The translations under genes were made by a program, and so were the position numbers. DNA of 57,958 nucleotides from a virus (taxonomy: Duplodnaviria > Heunggongvirae > Uroviricota > Caudoviricetes). The notes beneath the pieces were generated by a model. It was not told the DNA's origin, did not search any database, and saw only the letters and a list, made by a program, of their open reading frames with translations. Location of the stretch: IMG/VR virus record IMGVR_UViG_2778261152_000005, positions 1 to 57,958 of that record; one strand, written 5' to 3'. Below are positions 12,054 through 51,902 of the stretch, piece by piece; position 1 is the first letter of the stretch; every line of letters begins with the position of its first letter.

Positions 12054-12488
12054 TAATTAACCTCCTATTCTATTTGGTTAAAAGAAAAAACACCTTGCAA
12101 GCCTGACGGCTTCAAAGTGCATTGATTTTAATTATTTAGAGGATGGGAATGTTTTCCTGTCCTAATATTACTTTACCACGACTAAAGGCTTTTGTCAACC
12201 CGTAGTCGTAAAAATATTGATCTTTTTCAGTAAGTTATGATATTGCTTAACAATTCGTGCTCTTTTTCTTCCTTATTGTCTAAAACGCTCTAAAACGCCC
12301 TCTGACGAGGTTTTGATAAATACAATAATTCCCTTATGTAGAGGCTGTTTAGCTCGCCAGAGGCTTGATTTAAGCGGTAGAATCTCATCTACTACCTAAC
12401 ATCTTTAAACCATATTTTTCTTTTTTGTCTGTTTGATGGTTGATCTATAGTTATGCGTTAGCATCCCCAAAGGGGTAACGCTACTCTA

Positions 12489-12981: not shown

Positions 12982-13118
12982 GTAACAAAATTCTGTAGGG
13001 GTGGCTAACAGTTTTCTGTGGGGGTGTCTAACATAATTCTGTTAGGGTTGGGGTAACAGTTTTCTGTTAGGGTGCATATTTCTTTAAAAGTTAAGGATAA
13101 CAGAATTCTGTGGGGGTA
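12982..13118. promoter_or_regulatory. Iteron array (5 copies of AACAnnwTTCTGTnGGGGT), putative origin or Rep-binding region
   Basis: Four tandem copies at about 23-bp spacing plus one spaced copy, followed by AT-rich DNA. Confidence 0.55.
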
Positions 13119-17051: not shown

Positions 17052-18041
17052 ATGAACCGTATTGGCTGGATCTCATTAACTAGAGTAATAGCAGTAACAT
17101 TTATCGTAATGCTGCATTCTGCCTCATTCTATTTCAATAATTTTGATATTGGTGTTTTTGGCTGGGAAGTTGGGAATCTTGGTAATGCGGTTAGTAGATG
17201 GGGGGTTCCAGTTTTCATTATGCTATCAGGGGCTTTATTACTAAATAATAACAATTCGAATGACTACGCCTCTTTTTACAAACGCAGGCTCTCTAAGATA
17301 CTTATACCACTTATTTTCTGGTCTATCTTTTATTCTGCGATATGGCTTTTCCAGAATAAAGGTGACGCCACTATTTACGAAGCTTTAATAAATATTATAA
17401 GTGGACATCCGTTCTATCATATGTGGTTTATGTATATGATTCTTGGACTATACGCATTTACACCTTTGTTCAGGAAAATTGCATCTGTAATAGAAGATAA
17501 AGAAGCAACTTACTTAATCACCACTGTATTTATGCTTTCTGCCGTATGGATAAGTAATAAATACATAGCTGATGCTCATGATCCATTGTGGTTTTTCTGG
17601 TTCATTCAATACATTCCGTATTATTTTGCGGGGTATTATATTTCAAAATCATCTAGAAACATAAAGCCGACTCTTCTATTAATTGTAACGATTATAACCG
17701 TAGCAGCCACTTTTATAGCCACACATTACGCCTCGGTACAGTTTGGTAAGACTCAATACTTCTACGAACCGTTATCCCCTTTCATTATTATAATGTCATT
17801 GTGTGTATTTTGTTTATTCAAAAGGTGGAATTCAGGATTCTCCGACTCTCTCGCAAATTTAAGTTTAGGTGTTTATTTAATTCACCCTTTCTTTTTGCTG
17901 GCCTTCTTTAAGGTGTTTAAGGGGTTTGCAATGTCGTGGCCTCTTATGGGTTTTATTTGTGCGTGGATTATTTGCACAGTACTGTCTTTTGCTTCGACCT
18001 TCATTATCAAAAAAGTTAAATATTTAAATGTGATAGTGTAG
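17052..18041 (+). CDS. Acyltransferase family 3 membrane protein (O-antigen acetylase-like)
   Basis: 329 aa, multiple hydrophobic segments, N-terminal …RVIAVTFIVMLHS… typical of Oac/OafA-type acyltransferases; opposite strand to flanking phage genes. Confidence 0.75.
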   Translation: MNRIGWISLTRVIAVTFIVMLHSASFYFNNFDIGVFGWEVGNLGNAVSRWGVPVFIMLSGALLLNNNNSNDYASFYKRRLSKILIPLIFWSIFYSAIWLFQNKGDATIYEALINIISGHPFYHMWFMYMILGLYAFTPLFRKIASVIEDKEATYLITTVFMLSAVWISNKYIADAHDPLWFFWFIQYIPYYFAGYYISKSSRNIKPTLLLIVTIITVAATFIATHYASVQFGKTQYFYEPLSPFIIIMSLCVFCLFKRWNSGFSDSLANLSLGVYLIHPFFLLAFFKVFKGFAMSWPLMGFICAWIICTVLSFASTFIIKKVKYLNVIV

Positions 18042-18093: not shown

Positions 18094-20034
18094 TCAGACA
18101 AAATCAACTGCGGTATATCTAGATAAAAATCCACCCATACCCGAATATGAGATATTGGCGACCAAACTTACATCCGTAACGACAGTCGTAGAATTTATTG
18201 TCGTTGTGGATTTTTTTAATGTACCAGTCGCGGTTGTTACCTGCACAGCTACAGAACTAGCCCCCTGCTGGAAAACCTGCATATTGCCAATAAACCCACT
18301 ACCTTGCGCCATTCCAAATTTGCTGTATGCAGAACCACTCACTCCCATGTAGGGATAATGATATTTAGATAAATCGGCCTGCAATGAAACAGGATATGAG
18401 ATATTCACTGAATTTGCAGATGATAACATTGATAAATTACACCGCCAATGGATGTATTTACCTACTTGCCGGGCCTGAAGTGTATTTGTTACACTAGTGT
18501 TTAAATAGGTATTGTTTTTTGGAAAGTCTACCCATCCTGAATCGAACTGTTTAATTGGTGTCTTAATTGCAATCATCCCCCCGGCTAGAGCCCGAGGGCT
18601 ACCATCTGCACTTGGCTGAAGATATACGTCATCCCAAAGTAACTGAGCACTTCCCCCACCATCTAATGCGATGGCATGATGAAATCCTTCGTTTACACAT
18701 AACTCCTGTAGTTCAGAATATAAAATACCAAATGAAGATGATTGCCCTTGCACTTGAAGTATGCCGTAGTCTCCATTTGGGAAAACACCAAATACGGTTC
18801 TTGCGCTTATATCAGTTTGTGATGATACATCCTCATACGCCACACCGTTTTTAACAAGCAAATAATGCCAACCAAAACAACACCATGCACCTTCATTGAC
18901 ATAATCTTGTGCCGTCTTATTATCTGTATATGCCGCAATGGAAACTGAACCATCTTTCAATATCAATAAAGAGTAACGTCCATGTGTTTCTGTTTCGCCG
19001 CCGTCAAAATCCTGGTATGCAACCCCCCCTGATATCTGCAGCCCCCATGGTTTATACCCAACGCCATCTGTAATATTTGAATGCCAACCATCGCCATTAC
19101 AAATAGCAGGAGCTTTACTTTTTGAAGCATTCTCTGTTATTGTCATCGGCTGAACGTACATCACGCCAGATGAAAAATAAGGAGTATTACCATACTCCTT
19201 ATTAATATTTTGGGAGCCTTTCGGCACTGTAATAACGTGATAATAAACGCCACTGGAATGGATTTTCCTAATGCACTGTGATGACCCACTGCCATTCGTG
19301 ATATATCCACTTAAATTTTCAATCCCAAGGCTCAATTCATCAAGTTCATCCTGAACCGTTGTTCCATCAACAGTTCCAATTTTTGATGCCCCCGTTGGCT
19401 TTGCCAGTTCAATCATTACATCCGTTGCGGAACCTGACTGCGGTAAAACAGTTATCGGTTTACCCGCAGCGTTAAATGCCAGTAATTTGTTCGCACGTTG
19501 ATCAACTGGCGGGAGCACGTCAACATAGCTTTCTGGTACCCGAAGTGTGCGGTTTAAATTATTCTGCCCGGTTTGCTGAACATAGCGCTTTGTTGCCGCA
19601 TCCTGGTCGTTAACCGGATCGGCAAGCTCGGAAATCCGGTACCCTTCGGCATCAAACGGCCCACCAAACAAAGGTCGACGCAGTGCCAGTCCCAGATGGA
19701 TCCCATAACGTTGAATAGCCATCCATAGACGGTCGAAATCTTTATTTACCGTATCTGCAAGCAAGTCCCCGTTATCCTGATAATCAGTTAATCTGTAACT
19801 GGGGACAACACGTTCAATCATTACAACCGTGCCGGTAGCCGGAGCCGTGAGGAACGTAACATCACCGCCACCCACATTGCCTACGCCGGAGACAGAATAA
19901 CCGGACGTTAACTCCACACCGTTAAGTGTGACCTGAATGTCACTGGCACTGATAACATAAAACTCGAAAGGAAAAACGGTCGTCAGACCGTTGGCGTTGT
20001 AAATAATATAGGGCGTCTGGTTAGGTACCGACAT
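18094..20034 (-). CDS. Tail fibre / tailspike with T7 gp17-like N-terminal adaptor domain
   Basis: N-terminus (…GLTTVFPFEFYVISASDIQVTLNGVELTSGYSV…VVMIERVVPSYRLTDYQDNGDLL…) parallels the T7 gp17 N-terminal domain; remainder distinct. Confidence 0.7.
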   Translation of the reverse strand: MSVPNQTPYIIYNANGLTTVFPFEFYVISASDIQVTLNGVELTSGYSVSGVGNVGGGDVTFLTAPATGTVVMIERVVPSYRLTDYQDNGDLLADTVNKDFDRLWMAIQRYGIHLGLALRRPLFGGPFDAEGYRISELADPVNDQDAATKRYVQQTGQNNLNRTLRVPESYVDVLPPVDQRANKLLAFNAAGKPITVLPQSGSATDVMIELAKPTGASKIGTVDGTTVQDELDELSLGIENLSGYITNGSGSSQCIRKIHSSGVYYHVITVPKGSQNINKEYGNTPYFSSGVMYVQPMTITENASKSKAPAICNGDGWHSNITDGVGYKPWGLQISGGVAYQDFDGGETETHGRYSLLILKDGSVSIAAYTDNKTAQDYVNEGAWCCFGWHYLLVKNGVAYEDVSSQTDISARTVFGVFPNGDYGILQVQGQSSSFGILYSELQELCVNEGFHHAIALDGGGSAQLLWDDVYLQPSADGSPRALAGGMIAIKTPIKQFDSGWVDFPKNNTYLNTSVTNTLQARQVGKYIHWRCNLSMLSSANSVNISYPVSLQADLSKYHYPYMGVSGSAYSKFGMAQGSGFIGNMQVFQQGASSVAVQVTTATGTLKKSTTTINSTTVVTDVSLVANISYSGMGGFLSRYTAVDFV

Positions 20035-36377: not shown

Positions 36378-36558
36378 GTGTAACCACCTGTAACCACTGT
36401 AACCACCATCTTCTTAACCTTTCCCTGAACGACTTATATATATATATGGGGTTTTTAGAAAATAGGTGGTTACAGTGGTTACAGTGGTTACAACCCTTTA
36501 AATTCAATTAGTTAAAGCGTAACCACCTAAGCGTTGTAGGTGGTTACAGGTGGTTACA
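36378..36558. promoter_or_regulatory. Origin-like region: about 10 copies of GTAACCAC/GTGGTTAC in direct and inverted arrays flanking a (TA)n tract
   Basis: Three direct TGTAACCAC copies, an AT-rich TATATATATATAT stretch, three GTGGTTACA copies, a GTAACCACCTA…TAGGTGGTTAC palindrome and further copies; abuts the primase gene end. Confidence 0.55.
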
Positions 36559-38721
36559 CAGATACCCAAACGCGTTGCACTTTGCCGTTAACACGCCTCA
36601 AAACTCGCGAATAGCCGCAATTTTGCAAAACATTGCTAATTCGCATTTCTTCACGTTTTCCGATGTGGCTGGGATTTAAGCCAATCGCATCGCGCAGGAC
36701 GTCACTAGCGCGTAAAAATTCGCAATTTCGCGGAATGTCGTTAGTCATCAGGTCTGGAGTGTCGAGCCATTTCTCTACCGTTTCGAGCCACGCATCCTTA
36801 ATGGTGTACTGCTCGTGGACACTCGCACCGAGCCGCTCAGCGTCGCGGAACTGGATACCGCCGAGGCGCTTAAACGTCTCGCGAGCCTCAGCCCACAGCA
36901 GCAGCAAATCGCGCTTAATGGCCTGCACATCGACTTTCGACACCTCAACGGGCAACCATCGGCGGTTACCGGTCTTGTCCGCGAGGAACTCATCCTCGTT
37001 GGTGGTACCGACGAACACCAGGCGACGCGGGAACTGCGTGGCGAACTCCCGGTATTTGGGGATCCAGTTCTCATGCGTACGCGTCACGAATGCCTTGATG
37101 GATTCCAGCTCTTTGGTATTGAGGCCGCGCAGCTCGCCAATCTCAGCCACCAGGCGCCCGCGCATCTTGCGTGCGAGATCGTCGTCTTTCTCAGCGAAAG
37201 AAATCTCAGTGAAGAACGCCGGATCGGGGCTCAGCGCTTCCACGCCGGAGGATTTACCGCAGCCCTGCGGACCGACGAGGATCGGCACCATATCGGCTTT
37301 AACTCCGGGCTCCAGCACCCTGCCCGCCAGCGCAGTCCACATGTACATGGATACTGCGCGGGTGTATGGCGTGTCGGCGGTACCGAAGTGCGTATGGTAG
37401 AAAGTTTCGATACGCGGTACGCCGTCCCACTCCAGCCCGTTCAGCCAGGTTGTCGCCGAGTCAAACGGCTGTTCGTCAGCAGCCAGCAGCACCACGTCGC
37501 GAATGAGCTCGCGCCCCACAGGTTTAAAGCCGCGCTTTTCCATCGTGATGCGCAGGCGCGCATAGTCCGCATCGGTGAACGCCTGCCACTGGCCGGAGCC
37601 TGCCGGGGCGAACATGATTTCGTCGCGGAACTGGTCAAAGCGGATATCTATGTCCACAAAGTCAGGACGCACAACGGCTTTGGCCGCGTTGCTGATAGTA
37701 GCCTCGATGCGGCCCCACTTATCGCGTTCGAACGCCGGCAGCGGTAACGGCTCGGCCACTTCGGTGCTGGTCAGGTCTTCGAAATCGTCGTTACGAATAC
37801 CGATGGCGTTAAGGAAATCGCCGTCATCGCGGTGCGCACAGCTGGCGTGCAGGCACTTGAAATGGCCCTGCTCAAAGCCCGCGGTACCGCCCGGGAAGTA
37901 AACTGTGCTCGTCGGGTCGCCGCCGGTGCTGTGGCCGTCTTCGAACGGGCAGCGGATGTATCGCTCGCCGTTCGCACCATCAAGCAGCGTCCAGCCATTG
38001 GCATCGAGGTATTCCGCCGTATCGTCCGTGGCACCGGGCGTGAAGGTTGAACGGTCGCGCATCTTCGTGCTGCCCGCTTCGGTGGTGACTGACACAGGCA
38101 GCTGTTCCGCCAGGCGCTGCCACAGCGTTTCGAGCTGGTCAGCAGTTATGGCTGGAGGCTCGCCCGGCAGACCGCCGTCCCATTCAATACGCGCGCCGCT
38201 GCTATGCGTACCACAGGCAACGAACTGCTGCCCGTTCGCCAGCAGCTCGATAATCCCCATATCACCCGCCAGACGGTGGATGCGCTTACGGAAATCGCCG
38301 TCAACGGCCAGCAGGTACAGGCATTTGTTGCTGTTGGCGCGCCAGCGACGCGGCGGCAGCTCGCCCAGCGCTGCACCAGCGTTTTGCGAATATCGGCCTG
38401 GACGTCTTCGTCTTCGCTGTCGCAGTCCAGCGCAAGCCAGCCATGACCTGTACGCACGCAGATGCCGTAATCCGGTTCGTTTGACCAGCGGGCAAAGTCA
38501 TGCTCAGTGACTACATGCTCGGTCCAGTCTTTAATCCCGGTAGCCAGGCGGTCGCGGTTATACAGGCTCGGCGTTTTGCCGAGCATTTTGAGTTTGCTAT
38601 TCGGGGATATGGTAGCGCCCGGGTTGCACATGACCGGCAGCAGCTGGTCAGTACGCCCCAGCACCAGATCGAAGTGGAACCATTCGTCAGGCGTCGCCCC
38701 CCAGATCTTTTTCTCTGGCAT
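36554..38721 (-). pseudogene. Primase-helicase (Prim-Pol N-terminal domain plus P4/VirE-type P-loop domain) split by a frameshift near 38364-38366
   Basis: Upstream ORF (38146-38721) carries Prim-Pol-like …GICVRTGHGWLALDCDSEDED…; downstream ORF (36554-38260) carries …GPQGCGKSS… Walker A; frames join at a C3/G3 run where one extra G would restore …LVQRWGELPPRRW…. Confidence 0.55.
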
Positions 38722-38991: not shown

Positions 38992-39014
38992 CAAATACAA
39001 CAAAAATTGTATTT
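38992..39014. promoter_or_regulatory. Operator-like palindrome in the cI/cro intergenic region
   Basis: AAATACAA-CAAAAA-TTGTATTT inverted repeat. Confidence 0.35.
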
Positions 39015-39057
39015 AATAGAGGAAGGCTATAATTTCAACTCATACAAGGTATTAAAA

Positions 39058-39681
39058 ATGTCTCTCTCAGCACGCTTTAAAGCCCGCCGTCTCGAACTAG
39101 GAATGACACAAGTAGAGGTCGCAAACGCTGCGGGGGTTAGCCAACAATCTATCGAGTCAATCGAAAGCGGAAGAACTCGAAAGCCACGTAACCTTTTAGA
39201 CCTGGCTAAAGCGTTAAAATGTAGCCCGGACTGGCTTCTGAATGGTAAAAACATCATGCCACTCACTGAGATCAGCACCCGAAGAATCCCTGTATTGAGT
39301 TATGTACAGGCTGGCTGCTTAACTGAAGCAAGGGAAGTTACCGATCTGACTGGGGATTTCGAGTATGTACTGGCAGACTCCGACGTACCAGAGACATGCT
39401 TCGCGCTGCGCATTGATGGTGACAGTATGCAGCCAGAATTTAAGGAAGGGGATATTGTAATTATTGACCCTGACTTATGCCCCACACCTGGAGAATTTGT
39501 CGTTGCCAAGAATGGCGGCCACGAAGCGACTTTCAAAAAGTATCGTCCTTTAGGGATTGGCATAGACGACTTCGAACTGGTGCCACTTAATCCTGACTAT
39601 CCGGTTTTACGTAGCGCCGACATGAAGTTGCAAATCATCGGGGTGATGATTGAGCACCGCATTTACCGCCGTAAACGCTAA
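39058..39681 (+). CDS. CI-like repressor (HTH plus LexA/S24-type peptidase domain)
   Basis: N-terminal HTH (…LGMTQVEVANAAGVSQQSIESIESG…) and C-terminal S24-like region (…ALRIDGDSMQPEFKEGDIVIIDP…FVVAKNGGHEATFKKY…); start taken at ATG 39058. Confidence 0.75.
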   Translation: MSLSARFKARRLELGMTQVEVANAAGVSQQSIESIESGRTRKPRNLLDLAKALKCSPDWLLNGKNIMPLTEISTRRIPVLSYVQAGCLTEAREVTDLTGDFEYVLADSDVPETCFALRIDGDSMQPEFKEGDIVIIDPDLCPTPGEFVVAKNGGHEATFKKYRPLGIGIDDFELVPLNPDYPVLRSADMKLQIIGVMIEHRIYRRKR

Positions 39682-39716: not shown

Positions 39717-39798
39717 CCTATCTTACTTGTAAAATCTTACCAACTAAATTCATTTAAATATCAATAAGGTGGTATTCCTTTACTGAAAAATACCACAT

Positions 39799-40110
39799 TT
39801 GTGGTTTACACAATACAACTCAAATTGTAGATTTAACCACAAGTCGAACGGCGCGACTCTAAACCATGCGTCGGAACCGTGGCGGGACAGGATGTCGGCA
39901 ATACGGGTTAGTGAATTAATCAAAGGCTTCGGGCCTTTTACTAATCCACTGAATGAGGCCACTCCTATGAGCAAACAAGAGTTAATCGGCTTTCTGATGA
40001 ACCGCTACAACGTTTCCTGGCGTGTGGCAGAAGATGCTTTAAGAGATAACGACTGGGGTCTGATGATGGCCGCCGGCGATATTCGCGACGAGCTGGCCGC
40101 CGAAGTTTAA
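39799..40110 (+). CDS. Hypothetical protein (start uncertain; internal Mets at 39892 and 39967)
   Basis: ORF-track frame; no recognisable motif. Confidence 0.3.
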   Translation: MWFTQYNSNCRFNHKSNGATLNHASEPWRDRMSAIRVSELIKGFGPFTNPLNEATPMSKQELIGFLMNRYNVSWRVAEDALRDNDWGLMMAAGDIRDELAAEV

Positions 40111-40230
40111 CCATCCCCTGAATCATCCATTGCTGTGTGTAGTCTTTGCCCGCCTCCCATGACGGGCTTTTTTATACCTGAAAGCGCATTCAGTGCAGTG
40201 CGTTCCCCGACATGAAAAGGAGCACCACCG

Positions 40231-40377
40231 ATGAAACCTGAACACCTCCACCGGCTGACGGGGCGCGACGTGCTCCTTTATCGCCGAAAACAATTCGACA
40301 TCTTCACCGGTCTGGCCCTCGCTACTGCGTTCGGCCTGGCTATTACCTTCATTCTCCTTGTAGCGAGGACTGCTTAA
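40231..40377 (+). CDS. Small membrane peptide (48 aa, not in ORF track)
   Basis: ATG with AAAGGAG upstream; hydrophobic C-terminal half; stop overlaps next gene start (TAATG). Confidence 0.3.
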   Translation: MKPEHLHRLTGRDVLLYRRKQFDIFTGLALATAFGLAITFILLVARTA

Positions 40378-41072
40378 TGCAAATCACCAAAGAACAAGTA
40401 AAAGCCTGGCATGCCTGTACTGATGGCTTCCGCTGGTTTCTGGATAAATTCCCGCAGGGCGGTGCGTATGCCGATGTGCATGGTGCACTGATCGCCGATA
40501 AGCGTTTCGATGACGCGCGCTGGCTGGTCGATAAGATGTACCGCACGCATCTGGATAAAGCTGAATTCATTCAGGCTGAAACTGCTACGACCGACAAAAT
40601 GGTCGGTGAACTCACCAGCATGGAACTTCCATCTGATCAGGAAGAGGGTGAGAACAGCTCCGGCAACTACGCCCGAATCGGCAGCTCCGGCTACGACGCC
40701 CGAATCGGCAGCTCCGGCTACGACGCCCGAATCGGCAGCTCCGGCAACTACGCCCGAATCGGCAGCTCCGGCTACGACGCCCGAATCGGCAGCTCCGGCG
40801 ACGACGCCCAAATCGGCAGCTCCGGCAACTACGCCCGAATCGGCAGCTCCGGCTACAACGCCCAAATCACCGCATCAGGTAAAGGCTCCGTTGTGGCTTG
40901 TGCCGGTAGCGTGCAGCGCATTGTTCTGGGCGAAAACGGCTGTGCATCAGTGCCGTGGCACGACGGGAAACGAACCCGCATTGCAGTGGCTTACGTCGGC
41001 GAGAACGGCATTGAAGCAAACGCCCCATATTACGTGAACGACGAAGGCCAGTTCGTCAAGGTTGAGGATTAA
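40377..41072 (+). CDS. Protein with eight in-frame tandem nonapeptide repeats (SSGYDARIG-type)
   Basis: 231-aa ORF; 27-bp tandem repeat at 40656-40871 encodes SSGNYARIG/SSGYDARIG/SSGDDAQIG units. Confidence 0.55.
   Translation: MQITKEQVKAWHACTDGFRWFLDKFPQGGAYADVHGALIADKRFDDARWLVDKMYRTHLDKAEFIQAETATTDKMVGELTSMELPSDQEEGENSSGNYARIGSSGYDARIGSSGYDARIGSSGNYARIGSSGYDARIGSSGDDAQIGSSGNYARIGSSGYNAQITASGKGSVVACAGSVQRIVLGENGCASVPWHDGKRTRIAVAYVGENGIEANAPYYVNDEGQFVKVED
40656..40871. repeat. 8 x 27-bp near-perfect tandem repeat inside a coding sequence
   Basis: Unit AGCTCCGGC(TAC/AAC)(GAC/TAC)GCCCGAATCGGC repeated head-to-tail in frame. Confidence 0.85.
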
Positions 41073-41075
41073 TCC

Positions 41076-42011
41076 ATGAGCTTAGAAGCAAATCTCGAAC
41101 TTAACAACAAACTGCTGACGCAGCAGAACGAGCTGCAGGTGCGTAATATCGCTCTGCTGGAACAACTGGTGCAGTCCCTGACCTCTGGTGCATCACTGAG
41201 CGCCAGCACACCATTGCAGGTGCAGGAGTACCACGAATCAGCATCGGATACGGCCAAAGAGCAGACAAAAGCGCTGACGCTGGACGATCTGCAGTTTAGT
41301 GATGTTATCGCGATGGCCGGCTTCTACCCGGTGGCTAAACCTATTACCGCAGAAATGCTGCAACGCGCTATCGATTACCGCGATGCTGAAGGCGATAAGC
41401 GAGTCGTACAAATTGACGCTCTGGATTGCGCTTTGCAAGGGGTGAAGCGTGCAAAAGAACTCCATCAGCCCGCGCTGCTGGATCTCTCCCGTCATATTCT
41501 TAGTTGTTGGGACGATTTACCCACTATCGAATCCCGTCGTGACTTTGCCGAACGACTGCTGAATACGCCAAACGGCGAAAGGCATACGGTTCAGCCGAAA
41601 AAGGTCAACGGAAAAGGCCAACAAGCAGAAGAACGCTCCGGGCCGTTCTACTGCAAGAACGCCGATGGTTCCGCCGCCAGCGAACTCCATACCTTACGCA
41701 AGCTGAACGAGCTGCTTAAAAAGGGCCATATCGAGATCAACCGCGTTGAGTATCTCCAACTGCAGGAAGAATTCGCGCGTAAAGATGCAGCAAACAGCGG
41801 TAAGGATAAAGACGCCGGAACGGATGATACTCCTGATTTTTCTGCACTGCGTAAACAGGCTGAAGGGTTGATCCTCCAGTTGGCGAAGGGTGGTTACCGT
41901 GCCGAGGCTGTGGCGATTCTGGAGAAACAGGGAGCCAAAAAACTCGGCGAAGTTGCTGACGAGAATCTCGCAGACGTTATCGCTCAGGCTGAAAAAGCAC
42001 TGGAGGGTTAA
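41076..42011 (+). CDS. Hypothetical protein with N-terminal coiled-coil (311 aa)
   Basis: ORF closely packed with neighbouring genes. Confidence 0.45.
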
Positions 42012-49202: not shown

Positions 49203-49387
49203 CACCGGTTATCTCTGACACTGACCTGATTAACATCAAAGAGGTTGAGCGCTCTGTTGGCCTGAAAAAATCCAGCATTTATGAGCGCATCAGTAATAAC
49301 GAGTTTCCGAAGCCTAAGAAGCTCGGGAGCCGAACCTCCCGCTGGGTACGCGGCGAGGTCGAAGAGTGGAAAAAACAGTTTCTTTAA
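49199..49387 (+). CDS. AlpA-family transcriptional regulator / excisionase
   Basis: 62 aa, …LINIKEVERSVGLKKSSIYERISNNEFPKPKKLGSRTSRWVRGEVEEW…; convergent with the integrase. Confidence 0.7.
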   Translation: MTPVISDTDLINIKEVERSVGLKKSSIYERISNNEFPKPKKLGSRTSRWVRGEVEEWKKQFL

Positions 49388-50646
49388 ATCAAACGAAGCT
49401 GGTCAATATAATCCGCATACCACTGCATCATTTCCCGACGCCCTTCCATATACAGGGCATGGTTATAAACCCCGCGTATATTGTTCTTGTCCACGTGGGC
49501 GATCTGGAGTTCAACCCAGTCAGAGTTGAATCCTTTATCGTTCAGGATAGTGCTGAACGTATGCCGGAAGCCATGCCCTACTACCCTCCCCTTATACCCC
49601 AGCGTGTGGATCATCCTGTTTATTGTGTTCTCGCTCATGACCTTTGACGGGTCATTCCTGCCGGGGAACATATTCACGTATCGACCTGTCAGCCCGTGCA
49701 GTTCTTTTAGCAAGACGACAAGCTGATCGGAAAGAGGTACCAGGTGCGGGCGGTCCATCTTCATAAATTCGGCGGGTATCTCCCACAGCCGATTATCGAA
49801 ATCTACCCATTCCCATTTTGAATGCCGCAGTTCGTAAGTACGCAGCCCCGCCAGCATCATGATCTGCAACCCCAGCCGGGGCAGCGGGCTCCCCTTGTAA
49901 CTCTCAAGCGCCGCGAGAAAATCAGGCAGTTCCTCCGCCGTCAGGAACGGGAAGGACTCTCCTTTATGCCCGGTCATTGCGCTATTCAGTTCGCTGACGG
50001 GGTTATACTTCGCGCGCCCAGTCGCAACTGCATAGCTGAATACTTCACCGCACCACCGGCGCGTTTTGGCTGCTTTCTCGGTTGCGCCGCGATTCTCAAT
50101 TTTGCGCAGTGCCCTCAGCATCTGGACAGGCTCGATTTCAGCAACTGGCAGCTTACCCACCGCTGGGAAAATATCTTTGTTGAATGCTTCGAGAATGTCA
50201 GAGGCATAGCCAGGCGACCAGCGCGGCTTCTTGAATTCATGCCATTCTATCGCGATCTCTTTTAACGTGATCGTCTTTACTGCCGCAGCTGCGGCATGGC
50301 TTTTGACTTTTACCGGGTCAACACCTGCCGCAACGTTACGCCGGGCCTCGTCGCGTTTTTCGCGAGCGGCCGCCAGCGAAACAGCCGGGTATACCCCGAG
50401 CGCCAGCATCTTTTCTTTACCGGCGAAAGTATAGCGATAGCGCCAGTATTTTGCCCCGCTGGTTTTCACCAGCAGGATAAGCCCGTTGCCGTCTGGCAGC
50501 TTATAGTCTTTCTCGGCAGGCTTTGCCGTCTCGACCTGTCGCGCGTTTAGTTTCATAGGTACCCGCCTCAAACTCAGATACCCGATTATGTACCCGTTTT
50601 TAATTTGGATTGCAACGGCAAAAGGTGGATTATGGCGGACAAACAA
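49384..50646 (-). CDS. P4-type tyrosine integrase
   Basis: 420 aa; N-terminal arm-binding pattern (…LPDGNGLILLVKTSGAKYWRYRYTFAGKEKMLALGVYP…) and C-terminal …GHGFRHTFST…; next to the tRNA-Thr 3' fragment. Confidence 0.85.
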   Translation of the reverse strand: MFVRHNPPFAVAIQIKNGYIIGYLSLRRVPMKLNARQVETAKPAEKDYKLPDGNGLILLVKTSGAKYWRYRYTFAGKEKMLALGVYPAVSLAAAREKRDEARRNVAAGVDPVKVKSHAAAAAVKTITLKEIAIEWHEFKKPRWSPGYASDILEAFNKDIFPAVGKLPVAEIEPVQMLRALRKIENRGATEKAAKTRRWCGEVFSYAVATGRAKYNPVSELNSAMTGHKGESFPFLTAEELPDFLAALESYKGSPLPRLGLQIMMLAGLRTYELRHSKWEWVDFDNRLWEIPAEFMKMDRPHLVPLSDQLVVLLKELHGLTGRYVNMFPGRNDPSKVMSENTINRMIHTLGYKGRVVGHGFRHTFSTILNDKGFNSDWVELQIAHVDKNNIRGVYNHALYMEGRREMMQWYADYIDQLRLI

Positions 50647-51204: not shown

Positions 51205-51480
51205 GTGGCTTCCATTTCCATCAGATGTCCTTCCTGCTCCGCTACTGAAGGCGTGGTGCGTAACGGCAAAAGCACTGCCGGACATCAGCGCTATCTCTGC
51301 TCTCATTGCCGTAAAACATGGCAACTACAGTTCACTTACACCGCCTCTCAGCCCGGTAAGCACCAGAAAATCATTGATATGGCCATGAATGGCGTCGGAT
51401 GTCGCGCCAGTGCACGCATTATGGGCGTTGGCCTCAACACGGTTTTACGTCACTTAAAAAACTCAGGCCGCAGTCGGTAA
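51205..51480 (+). CDS. insA: IS1 InsA
   Basis: 91 aa, [43 protein letters not shown]…; A6C slippery site near its 3' end. Confidence 0.9.
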
Positions 51481-51902
51481 CCTCGCGCATACAACCGGGC
51501 AGTGATGTGATTGTCTGCGCTGAAATGGACGAACAGTGGGGCTACGTCGGTGCTAAATCACGTCAGCGCTGGCTGTTTTACGCGTATGACAGGATACGGA
51601 GGACGGTTGTGGCGCACGTCTTCGGTGAACGCACTCTGGCCACACTGGAGCGTCTTCTGAGCCTGCTGTCGGCCTTTGAGGTCGTGGTATGGATGACGGA
51701 TGGCTGGCCGCTGTATGAATCACGCCTGAAGGGAAAGCTGCACGTTATCAGCAAGCGTTATACTCAGCGCATTGAGCGACATAATCTGAATCTGAGACAA
51801 CATCTGGCAAGGCTGGGACGGAAGTCACTGTCGTTCTCAAAATCGGTGGAGTTGCATGACAAGGTCATCGGGCATTATCTGAACATAAAACACTATCAGT
51901 AA
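51399..51902 (+). CDS. insB: IS1 InsB frame (expressed as InsAB' by -1 frameshift)
   Basis: …[33 protein letters not shown]…[46 protein letters not shown]…. Confidence 0.85.

Follow-up and report, generated by a model that had tools for sequence, protein, structure and literature searches.

A tandem-repeat array inside a prophage gene was found to change in copy number and in the order of its units much faster than the surrounding DNA, and its variation was limited to three positions in each unit. The gene (40377..41072, + strand) encodes a 231-amino acid protein of the YdhT family and lies in IMG/VR record IMGVR_UViG_2778261152_000005, a stretch of 57,958 nucleotides, referred to here in its entirety as the window, which consists of Escherichia coli chromosome near paoCD together with an integrated podovirus-like prophage. 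That the array is a solenoid and that it is hypervariable can be proposed with good confidence. The fuller interpretation, in which this hypervariable solenoid provides a fast-evolving binding surface in phage–host conflict, is put forward tentatively.

The array occupies 40656..40871 (+), corresponding to residues 94–165 of the open reading frame (ORF), and each 27-bp unit encodes S-S-G-x-x-A-[R/Q]-I-G, with nucleotides 10, 13 and 20 variable. A first-pass annotation of the window had reported eight in-frame units at this position, and this count was confirmed by Tandem Repeats Finder, by the frame of the ORF and by counting the degenerate 27-mer AGCTCCGGCNACNACGCCCRAATCGGC. Tandem Repeats Finder described positions 40655–40868 as 7.9 copies of period 27 (92% matches, score 358) and also called the same array with an 81-bp, three-unit super-period (96% matches). 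The 27-mer matched eight times in the window, with all eight matches inside the array, while 100 dinucleotide-preserving shuffles gave no match in any case. Read in the frame of the ORF, the units are SSGNYARIG, SSGYDARIG, SSGYDARIG, SSGNYARIG, SSGYDARIG, SSGDDAQIG, SSGNYARIG and SSGYNAQIT. The SSGYDARIG nonapeptide under which the array had been annotated is therefore present, but it is only one of four unit types. Units differ from one another in the leading base of codon 4 (A/T/G) and of codon 5 (T/G/A) and in the middle base of codon 7 (CGA/CAA); an extra change of GGC to ACC is confined to the last unit, and no synonymous difference was found between the eight units. The ORFs seen in other frames and on the antisense strand across the array are by-products of the stop-free repeat. 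Two E. coli assemblies include a protein identical to that of the window (P0007). Searches with the gene by megablast and blastn gave no DNA match among 50,697 phage records or in any complete E. coli genome, and for the 14-kb early and replication region of the prophage the DNA matches were three Escherichia phages only, over the replication genes.

The behavior of the array among close relatives was studied using the 120 closest homologues, mostly from Salmonella, Citrobacter, Enterobacter, and Klebsiella prophages, the flanks of which are 72–92% identical to the window protein. These homologues carry 4–15 units, with protein length rising in steps of 9 amino acids, and the copy number is odd in 66 homologues and even in 54, neither parity being rare. 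Within this family, 34 cluster representatives share N-terminal flanks of 93 amino acids and C-terminal flanks of 66 amino acids that are 100% identical, and these 34 proteins have 34 different arrays of 7–14 units, built from the di-residues YN, DD, ND, NY, YY, YD, and DY freely paired with R or Q. A second group with identical flanks (n = 17) differs mostly by 1 to 3 units, gained or lost, or by unit-type conversions. At the level of DNA, Salmonella prophage alleles with 9 units (P0100, 241 contigs), 10 units (P0079, 13 contigs) and 12 units (P0055, seven contigs) were compared. The 10- and 12-unit alleles showed 0–2 mismatches to the 9-unit reference locus L002 across 6 kb upstream and 6 kb downstream, other 9-unit copies showed up to five differences from L002 in the same 12-kb flanks, and one pair of prophages had no mismatch in 12,000 bp of flanking sequence and yet carried different arrays. 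Copy number thus differs between otherwise near-identical genomes, as expected of a variable number tandem repeat (VNTR). These data support the earlier suggestion that the array gains and loses units without a change of frame, and they rule out an identical unit count in all homologues; the suggestion that such changes produce length variation was correct as far as copy number goes but incomplete, since unit types are reshuffled as well. In addition, a published laboratory evolution experiment reported a 54-bp (2 × 27) in-frame deletion at nucleotide 803 of a 1,413-nucleotide Serratia symbiotica gene annotated 'ydhT_1' (PMC12505973), and by position alone this deletion fits the place where an array would be expected.

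It could be that assembly produced the array, or its exact number of units, as an artefact, especially as many public contigs stop inside such arrays, including contigs of Trabulsiella and Lonsdalea and roughly 15 of 43 IMG/VR loci, and as the window itself is probably taken from a draft assembly, the identical protein being found on contigs of about 73 kb. However, reads or inserts of common length exceed the 216 bp of the array, two assemblies contain the identical protein and up to 241 contain related alleles, and complete phage and chromosome records also carry such arrays, with 21 units in Edwardsiella phage GF-2 and 13–15 units in chromosomes of 4–5.6 Mb. An artefact is therefore regarded as a remote prospect, and the alleles seen many times, together with the complete genomes, indicate that the array variation is real. 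The contigs that end in an array come from isolate genomes as well as from IMG/VR (L007/L008, L009, L021–L027, L034, L038–L041, and L046). Short-read assemblers break systematically at such arrays, and database copies of the gene are often split or truncated.

The positions at which units vary were then compared across the whole family. A phmmer search of 1.84 billion representative proteins (clusters at 50% identity, E ≤ 1e-3) identified at least 1,209 clusters, the first database search having given 3,848 matches, and the family spans the Proteobacteria, with Bacteroides phages joined by a repeat-only match. In the 130 of 150 listed representatives with an array of at least four units, the mean numbers of distinct residues within a protein at unit positions 1–9 were 2.2, 2.5, 1.0, 4.0, 4.1, 2.0, 3.5, 1.8, and 3.1, variability thus being highest at positions 4, 5, and 7. 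Position 4 is mostly D, Y, N, or H, position 5 mostly Y, S, D, or G, and position 7 is Q or K/R. In many members the di-residue comes in about four types, such as HY/HS/DS/DY, EG/DW/DG/VR, or YR/EG/GG/NW. The variable positions are rich in D, Y, N, S, G, and H, with aliphatic residues almost absent, a bias that fits an exposed and selected surface. Five genes were also compared at the DNA level, from E. coli, Salmonella, phage GF-2, Limnobaculum, and Variovorax. In each of these the units are identical at 20–23 of 27 nucleotides and all internal differences lie in codons 4, 5, and 7, whereas the backbone codons vary from gene to gene (TCC/TCA, GGC/GGT, GCC/GCG, and CGA/CGT). Identity within genes combined with codon differences between them suggests that arrays are homogenized internally, with few unit types retained. 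More distant phages use other backbones, such as ASGxxSxLA and TTGxxANAA.

The main alternative to a selected surface is neutral length polymorphism, where the array would be a solenoid spacer or scaffold with weakly constrained length and turn residues, and slippage would have no adaptive meaning. This is consistent with the tolerance of 4 to 15 units and of both parities, with the independent assortment of di-residue type and R/Q, the positional pattern of which shows only mild end preferences, and with chromosomal YdhT (described below), which works with fixed, degenerate repeats. Set against this, the same three positions vary in at least 130 divergent representatives and draw on a narrow polar and aromatic set, synonymous variants are absent within arrays, and the choice between Q and a basic residue at position 7 is family-wide. 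In GF-2 the R and Q codons are CGT and CAA, two linked differences that point to an old dimorphism and not to a single recurrent mutation. The narrow residue alphabet and the conserved choice of variable positions weaken the neutral explanation, which we consider doubtful though still the foremost rival.

The same comparisons bear on whether the repeats act as DNA, either as replication-origin iterons or as a recombination hot spot inside the ORF. The phage lambda origin lies inside gene O and provides a model for such an arrangement; moreover, the units in the window are direct repeats, stand beside replication genes and are perfectly homogenized at the nucleotide level. The peptide repeat, however, is kept with other codons and backbones in distant phages and in chromosomal YdhT, all of the variation is nonsynonymous, and in GF-2, which has an O/P replication module of its own, that module is located far from the YdhT-like gene. 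In the window, a far better origin candidate is found at 36379–36558, where 9-bp iterons in both orientations surround an AT-rich tract. A role at the level of DNA is thus judged very unlikely.

The window protein was described initially as a protein of unknown role. The family is indeed uncharacterized, but the protein is no orphan, as it belongs to the catalogued YdhT family. It matched the NCBIfam model NF007410 'protein YdhT' with an E value of 5.5e-69 and 232.7 bits, below the 300-bit equivalog cut-off, and the identical protein P0007 carries the precomputed Pfam annotation PF27195 (YdhT_N). The local Pfam scan returned only Collagen and DUF4774, both below threshold, and did not report YdhT_N because the PF27195 model is newer than the local Pfam copy. 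By BLASTP, the window protein and chromosomal YdhT (P0137, the representative of a 6,294-sequence cluster) align end to end over 269 columns with 34% identity (E 1e-46). The Citrobacter orthologue of YdhT (P0278) is encoded by the last gene of the ydhYVWXUT operon, while the window gene is found in a prophage early operon and not with ydhYVWXU. The score below the equivalog cut-off and the prophage context together identify the window protein as a family member and paralogue rather than as YdhT itself. A 'ydhT' feature listed in a machine-learning study of host range, built on a combined Salmonella and E. coli pangenome and left undiscussed in that paper, was suspected of being a species separator and was not used.

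Four segments make up the protein, as defined by the ORF list, NF007410, PF27195, and BLASTP. Residues 1–80 (40377..40616, +) form a helical YdhT_N domain, recognized from AlphaFold2 (AF2) models and a local hidden Markov model (HMM), that carries the motif W-x-A-C-x-D-G-x-R-W-F-x-x-K-F-P-Q-G-G. The AF2 models place helices at residues 5–10, 15–24, 31–40, 46–58, and 62–80, and the predicted local distance difference test (pLDDT) values are 58–88 (block means) in the window protein and about 57–93 for the same residues of YdhT. An acidic linker follows (residues 81–93, SMELPSDQEEGEN, 40617..40655, +), which has low pLDDT in both AF2 models; the alignment shows that the Salmonella P0100 allele group has a shorter junction in its place. 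Beyond the array lies a C-terminal β cap (residues 166–231, 40872..41069, +) with the conserved pattern ...VVACAG...LGENGCA...DGxRxRxAVAYVGENGI...G-F-V, for which pLDDT block means are 49–82 (mostly 67–82) in the window protein and 93–97 in YdhT. The cap is conserved in 93 of 150 family representatives. The YdhT_N domain, detected with the local HMM of residues 1–70, is present in 65 of 150, and in other members the module of repeats plus cap is fused to DUF7666 (53 of 149), Macro, or PcfJ-like N-terminal domains. The array itself is about neutral, with a charge of +0.5 and an isoelectric point of 8.0, while the whole window protein is acidic; a DNA mimic was ruled out on the basis of the near-neutral array.

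Structure prediction for the repeats, which the first-pass annotation had proposed, was only partly successful with the window protein. In the AF2 model the end domains were confident while the array had pLDDT values of 23–38, obtained with a 57-sequence alignment of ragged copy numbers, and it is likely that this mixture of copy numbers accounts for the low values. Chromosomal YdhT, with its fixed and degenerate repeats, was therefore modeled instead. In this case a confident β-solenoid was obtained, with a mean pLDDT of 87.8 and values of 86–96 across the repeats, in which 15 strands of 4–5 residues follow one another at an exact 9-residue spacing. Each strand has the sequence [R/Q/H]-[I/V]-[G/A]-[S/T] and each turn S-G-x-x-A, so that by homology a window unit would supply one strand, [R/Q]-I-G-S, and one turn, S-G-x-x-A. 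The best structural matches of the YdhT model were RTX-type and antifreeze β-solenoids, with curli CsgA also listed, and the low-confidence model of the window protein likewise retrieved RTX proteins and curli; a structure search of BFVD returned uncharacterized phage proteins only. The YdhT model appears to have the arrangement of an RTX-like β-roll with two nonapeptides per coil. By homology to it, the window array is predicted to be a β-roll-like rod in which each coil would hold about two units, so that eight units would give approximately four coils.

Chromosomal E. coli YdhT shares with the window protein the same three-part architecture, comprising YdhT_N, strands of 9-residue x-I-[GA]-S periodicity, and the same C-terminal cap. 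It differs in having a fixed length of 269–270 amino acids, degenerate and nonidentical repeats, and a place as the last gene of an oxidoreductase operon, whereas the window gene is prophage-borne and has perfect 27-bp units of variable copy number. Despite the structural likeness, the units are not true RTX repeats. They depart from the GGxGxDxUx consensus of the RTX β-rolls (CyaA, AlgE R-modules) and of the calcium-dependent β-helix of MpAFP, as Ser replaces the second Gly, the position of the Asp is variable, and a hydrophobic residue stands at position 9 and Ala at position 7, which shifts the register by one. No HemolysinCabind match was found in Pfam, RTX_toxin scored 20.7 bits against a cut-off of 1000, and the best match to an RTX sequence in the PDB had an E value of 0.07. 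No secretion genes were found near the window gene, and for a cytoplasmic protein with neither a signal peptide nor a type I secretion context, calcium-dependent folding is unlikely.

Collagen was rejected on similar grounds, since the period is 9, Gly occupies only unit positions 3 and 9, and the PF01391 match reached 18.1 bits against a threshold of 27.2. This matters for the idea that the protein is a structural component of the virion, namely a collagen-like tail fiber protein, which draws on the annotation of the GF-2 copy as a 'putative collagen-like protein', on weak PHROG matches to tail fiber and structural families, and on the weak Pfam Collagen match. The PHROG matches cover only the low-complexity repeats, the array lacks Gly-X-Y periodicity, and the gene is always located in the early or immunity region and not in the structural module. 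A virion role is accordingly most improbable.

In its genetics, the array resembles those of transcription activator-like (TAL) effectors, which also consist of units near-identical at the DNA level, often with about four unit types, and evolve by gain, loss, and shuffling of units; the hypervariable di-residue typical of TAL effectors was found here too. The likeness is one of genetics only, as TAL-effector repeats are helical and 34 residues long in contrast to the 9-residue β-solenoid units considered here, and the window array adds a third variable position (Q versus R/K) and is roughly neutral in charge. The in-frame VNTRs of surface and contingency genes (alpha C/Rib-type) are also similar, in that units are homogenized, slippage and recombination act on them and the frame is kept; the window protein differs in being early and cytoplasmic, with units that carry three variable sites and are not all identical. 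A target of a diversity-generating retroelement was ruled out, as there is no template copy (AGCTCCGGCNACNACGCCCRAATCGGC occurs only in the array) and the unit types are discrete, although the search for a reverse transcriptase was not exhaustive.

One interpretation of the TAL-like genetics is that the array is a programmable recognition code, where each unit would be one 'letter' (one of about four di-residue types combined with Q or a basic residue) displayed at 4.8-Å spacing along the rod. A periodic ligand, for example a nucleic acid strand, a glycan, or a protein filament, would then be read by the array, shuffling of 27-bp units would re-write its specificity, and YdhT_N, DUF7666, Macro, and PcfJ-like domains would be the payloads. 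This proposal is considered a long shot.

The tentatively favored interpretation is that of a fast-evolving binding surface. Slipped-strand mispairing and unequal recombination between units would alter copy number and reshuffle a few unit types, and the gain or loss of units would lengthen or shorten the rod while leaving the YdhT_N domain and the C-terminal cap undisturbed. The turn di-residue (mostly D/Y/N/H followed by Y/S/D/G) and the strand residue that is either Q or basic may form ladders along the outside of the rod, and such ladders could constitute a binding surface that is quickly rewritten. Transcription of the gene probably occurs with an early, pL-type operon in lytic growth, which suggests a variable component of the host or of a competitor as the most likely target of the protein, in a role such as anti-defense, host takeover, or exclusion. 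The swappable N-terminal domain could serve as an effector or an adaptor.

The genomic context was examined next. The prophage encodes a T7-type tail-fiber N-terminus, a capsid protein, a head–tail connector, and an integrase (49384–50646). The genes around the array run in the order primase/helicase (−), Cro-like helix-turn-helix (HTH) protein (−), CI-type HTH-S24 repressor (+), a small ORF, an RprA-like terminator element, a 48-amino acid hydrophobic ORF, the YdhT-like gene, a 311-amino acid protein, a DUF2800 exonuclease, a gp2.5/Enc34-type single-stranded DNA-binding protein, and DNA polymerase A. The annotated location between the repressor and the replication genes was thus correct, and it recurs in unrelated phages. 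The same layout is found in Salmonella and IMG/VR relatives, and in seven loci (L016, L017, L019, L020, L023, L028, and L031) the gene lies 1–2 kb downstream of a CI-type repressor. In unrelated lambdoid genomes it is again just downstream of the repressor, and in phage GF-2 its place is in the leftward early operon, immediately after the antiterminator N and before cIII and the recombination genes.

The CI-type repressor of the window (39007..39681, +) was identified by its match to phrog_4 (E 2.6e-51), with Pfam HTH_3 and Peptidase_S24 recognized on the corresponding gene of locus L005. Downstream of it, a 14-bp palindrome, ACCACATTTGTGGT, overlaps a sigma-70-like promoter (TTTACA-17-TAGATT) at 39792..39833 (+). 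This site was found by inspection of the sequence and by a promoter scan, the match of which was without statistical enrichment, and it is a candidate repressible early promoter. An element resembling the small RNA RprA and its intrinsic terminator follows at 40073..40177 (+; Rfam RF00034, 53.7 bits against a gathering score of 70, E 3e-6). The match to RF00034 is full length, with the 3′ half including the terminator near-identical to the consensus and ending in GCCCG...CGGGC-UUUUUU, and it lies ~ 55 bp upstream of the 48-amino acid ORF and 200 bp upstream of the YdhT-like gene. The element is also present upstream of the gene in locus L017 (5708–5798, 62.5 bits), and blastn gave partial matches of 20–97 nucleotides at 14 more related loci (L002–4, L007, L016, L019–22, L026, and L059–61). 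As it recurs at the equivalent position in related prophages, the element may be an RprA mimic carried by phages or a terminator that was borrowed. The 48-amino acid ORF, which has a hydrophobic tail (40231..40377, +; phrog_11981, E 2.8e-32), is kept directly upstream in related enterobacterial loci, and its stop codon overlaps the start of the YdhT-like gene (TAATG), so that the two are probably translationally coupled. The next gene in the operon encodes the 311-amino acid protein (41076..42011, +; phrog_6784, E 9e-145) and is syntenic in Salmonella and IMG/VR relatives. No partner gene was common to all contexts, as neither the 311-amino acid neighbor nor the small upstream ORF has a counterpart beside the GF-2 copy.

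Taken with the terminator at ~ 40150–40177, the palindrome and promoter-like site suggest expression in lytic growth rather than in the lysogen. This bears on the alternative that the protein is a prophage exclusion or abortive-infection factor protecting the lysogen, with the array acting as a sensor surface for incoming phage proteins. Genes of the rexAB, sieB, and bstA types sit by the immunity region, which the window gene also adjoins, and hypervariability would suit a sensor. The anti-defense or exclusion function raised in the first-pass annotation is likewise an argument from gene position. On the other hand, the GF-2 copy follows N in the pL operon, and in the window the gene is preceded by a promoter-like site with a palindrome and by a strong terminator-like hairpin, an arrangement that points to repression in the lysogen. 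No match to PADLOC-DB 2.0 was obtained with the protein or with either of the two small upstream ORFs, the 311-amino acid neighbor alone giving a marginal match (E 0.008), and no toxic effector domain was recognized. A lysogen-protecting role is therefore considered improbable.

Several points weigh against a binding surface shaped by phage–host conflict. Chromosomal YdhT is encoded in an anaerobic oxidoreductase operon and has fixed, degenerate repeats, which shows that the scaffold can also be used for housekeeping, outside any conflict, and the fast turnover of exposed residues could itself be neutral. The array fold is taken from a paralogue with 34% identity, pLDDT in the window array being 23–38, and the outward orientation of the variable residues is predicted from the pattern of strands and turns only. 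Early expression is likewise deduced from gene order, and PADLOC-DB links neither the protein nor its two small upstream ORFs to a known system. The N-domain profile matched no PDB structure and no Pfam relative, and literature searches covering YdhT, DUF7666/PF27195, phage nonapeptide repeats, and 27-bp prophage VNTRs found no paper on the family. Most alleles come from short-read assemblies, the contigs of which break in arrays, and some singleton alleles may therefore be mis-assembled.

The hypervariable, cassette-like behavior of the phage members of the family, with a repeat-variable di-residue on a β-solenoid, appears to be undescribed. If the ladders are a selected binding surface, they would represent a very widespread and undescribed route by which temperate phages diversify an early protein, where 27-bp cassettes, each setting three exposed residues on a rigid rod, take the place of point mutation or a retroelement. 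The family includes the core E. coli gene ydhT, so that a function for one member would annotate many. Such arrays break short-read assemblies and produce spurious 'collagen-like' and 'tail fibre' annotations, and they could be used as high-resolution typing markers for Salmonella prophage lineages.

A number of further features were observed in the window and in one related locus. The repeat cluster at 36379–36558, directly 3′ of the primase/helicase gene, is made up of 9–10-bp repeats, namely three copies of TGTAACCAC(C), the AT-rich TATATATATATAT, three copies of GTGGTTACA in the opposite orientation, GTAACCACC, and two copies of GGTGGTTACA; it looks like a replication origin or an operator cluster. 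The palindrome ACCACATTTGTGGT at 39792–39805 has a half-site in common with this cluster. The VapE-like primase/helicase gene itself (36554–38721, −) consists of two overlapping ORFs in different frames (38146–38721 and 36554–38260), while in Salmonella and IMG/VR relatives it encodes a single 722-amino acid protein. The split points to a probable frameshift, and the prophage may be replication-defective, or there may be an indel error in the assembly. In locus L019, an IsrK-like RNA (48.2 bits) and a C4 antisense RNA (66.4 bits) were detected at 12228–12412, ~ 5 kb downstream of the YdhT-like gene, and by these matches the two are an immunity RNA pair of the P4/P1 type, located in the same early region. 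Elsewhere in the prophage, an acyltransferase gene (17052–18041) lies beside the tail-fiber gene (18094–20034), the product of which joins the T7 tail-fiber N-terminus to an NAGPA phosphodiester-glycosidase domain, and the integrase gene (49384–50646, −) is followed by an IS1 transposase gene (51399–51902). Outside the prophage, a 23/48-bp tandem repeat, TTCTGTTAGGGGTGGCTAACAGTT, is present at 12983–13074 in 3.5 copies with 76–84% matches.

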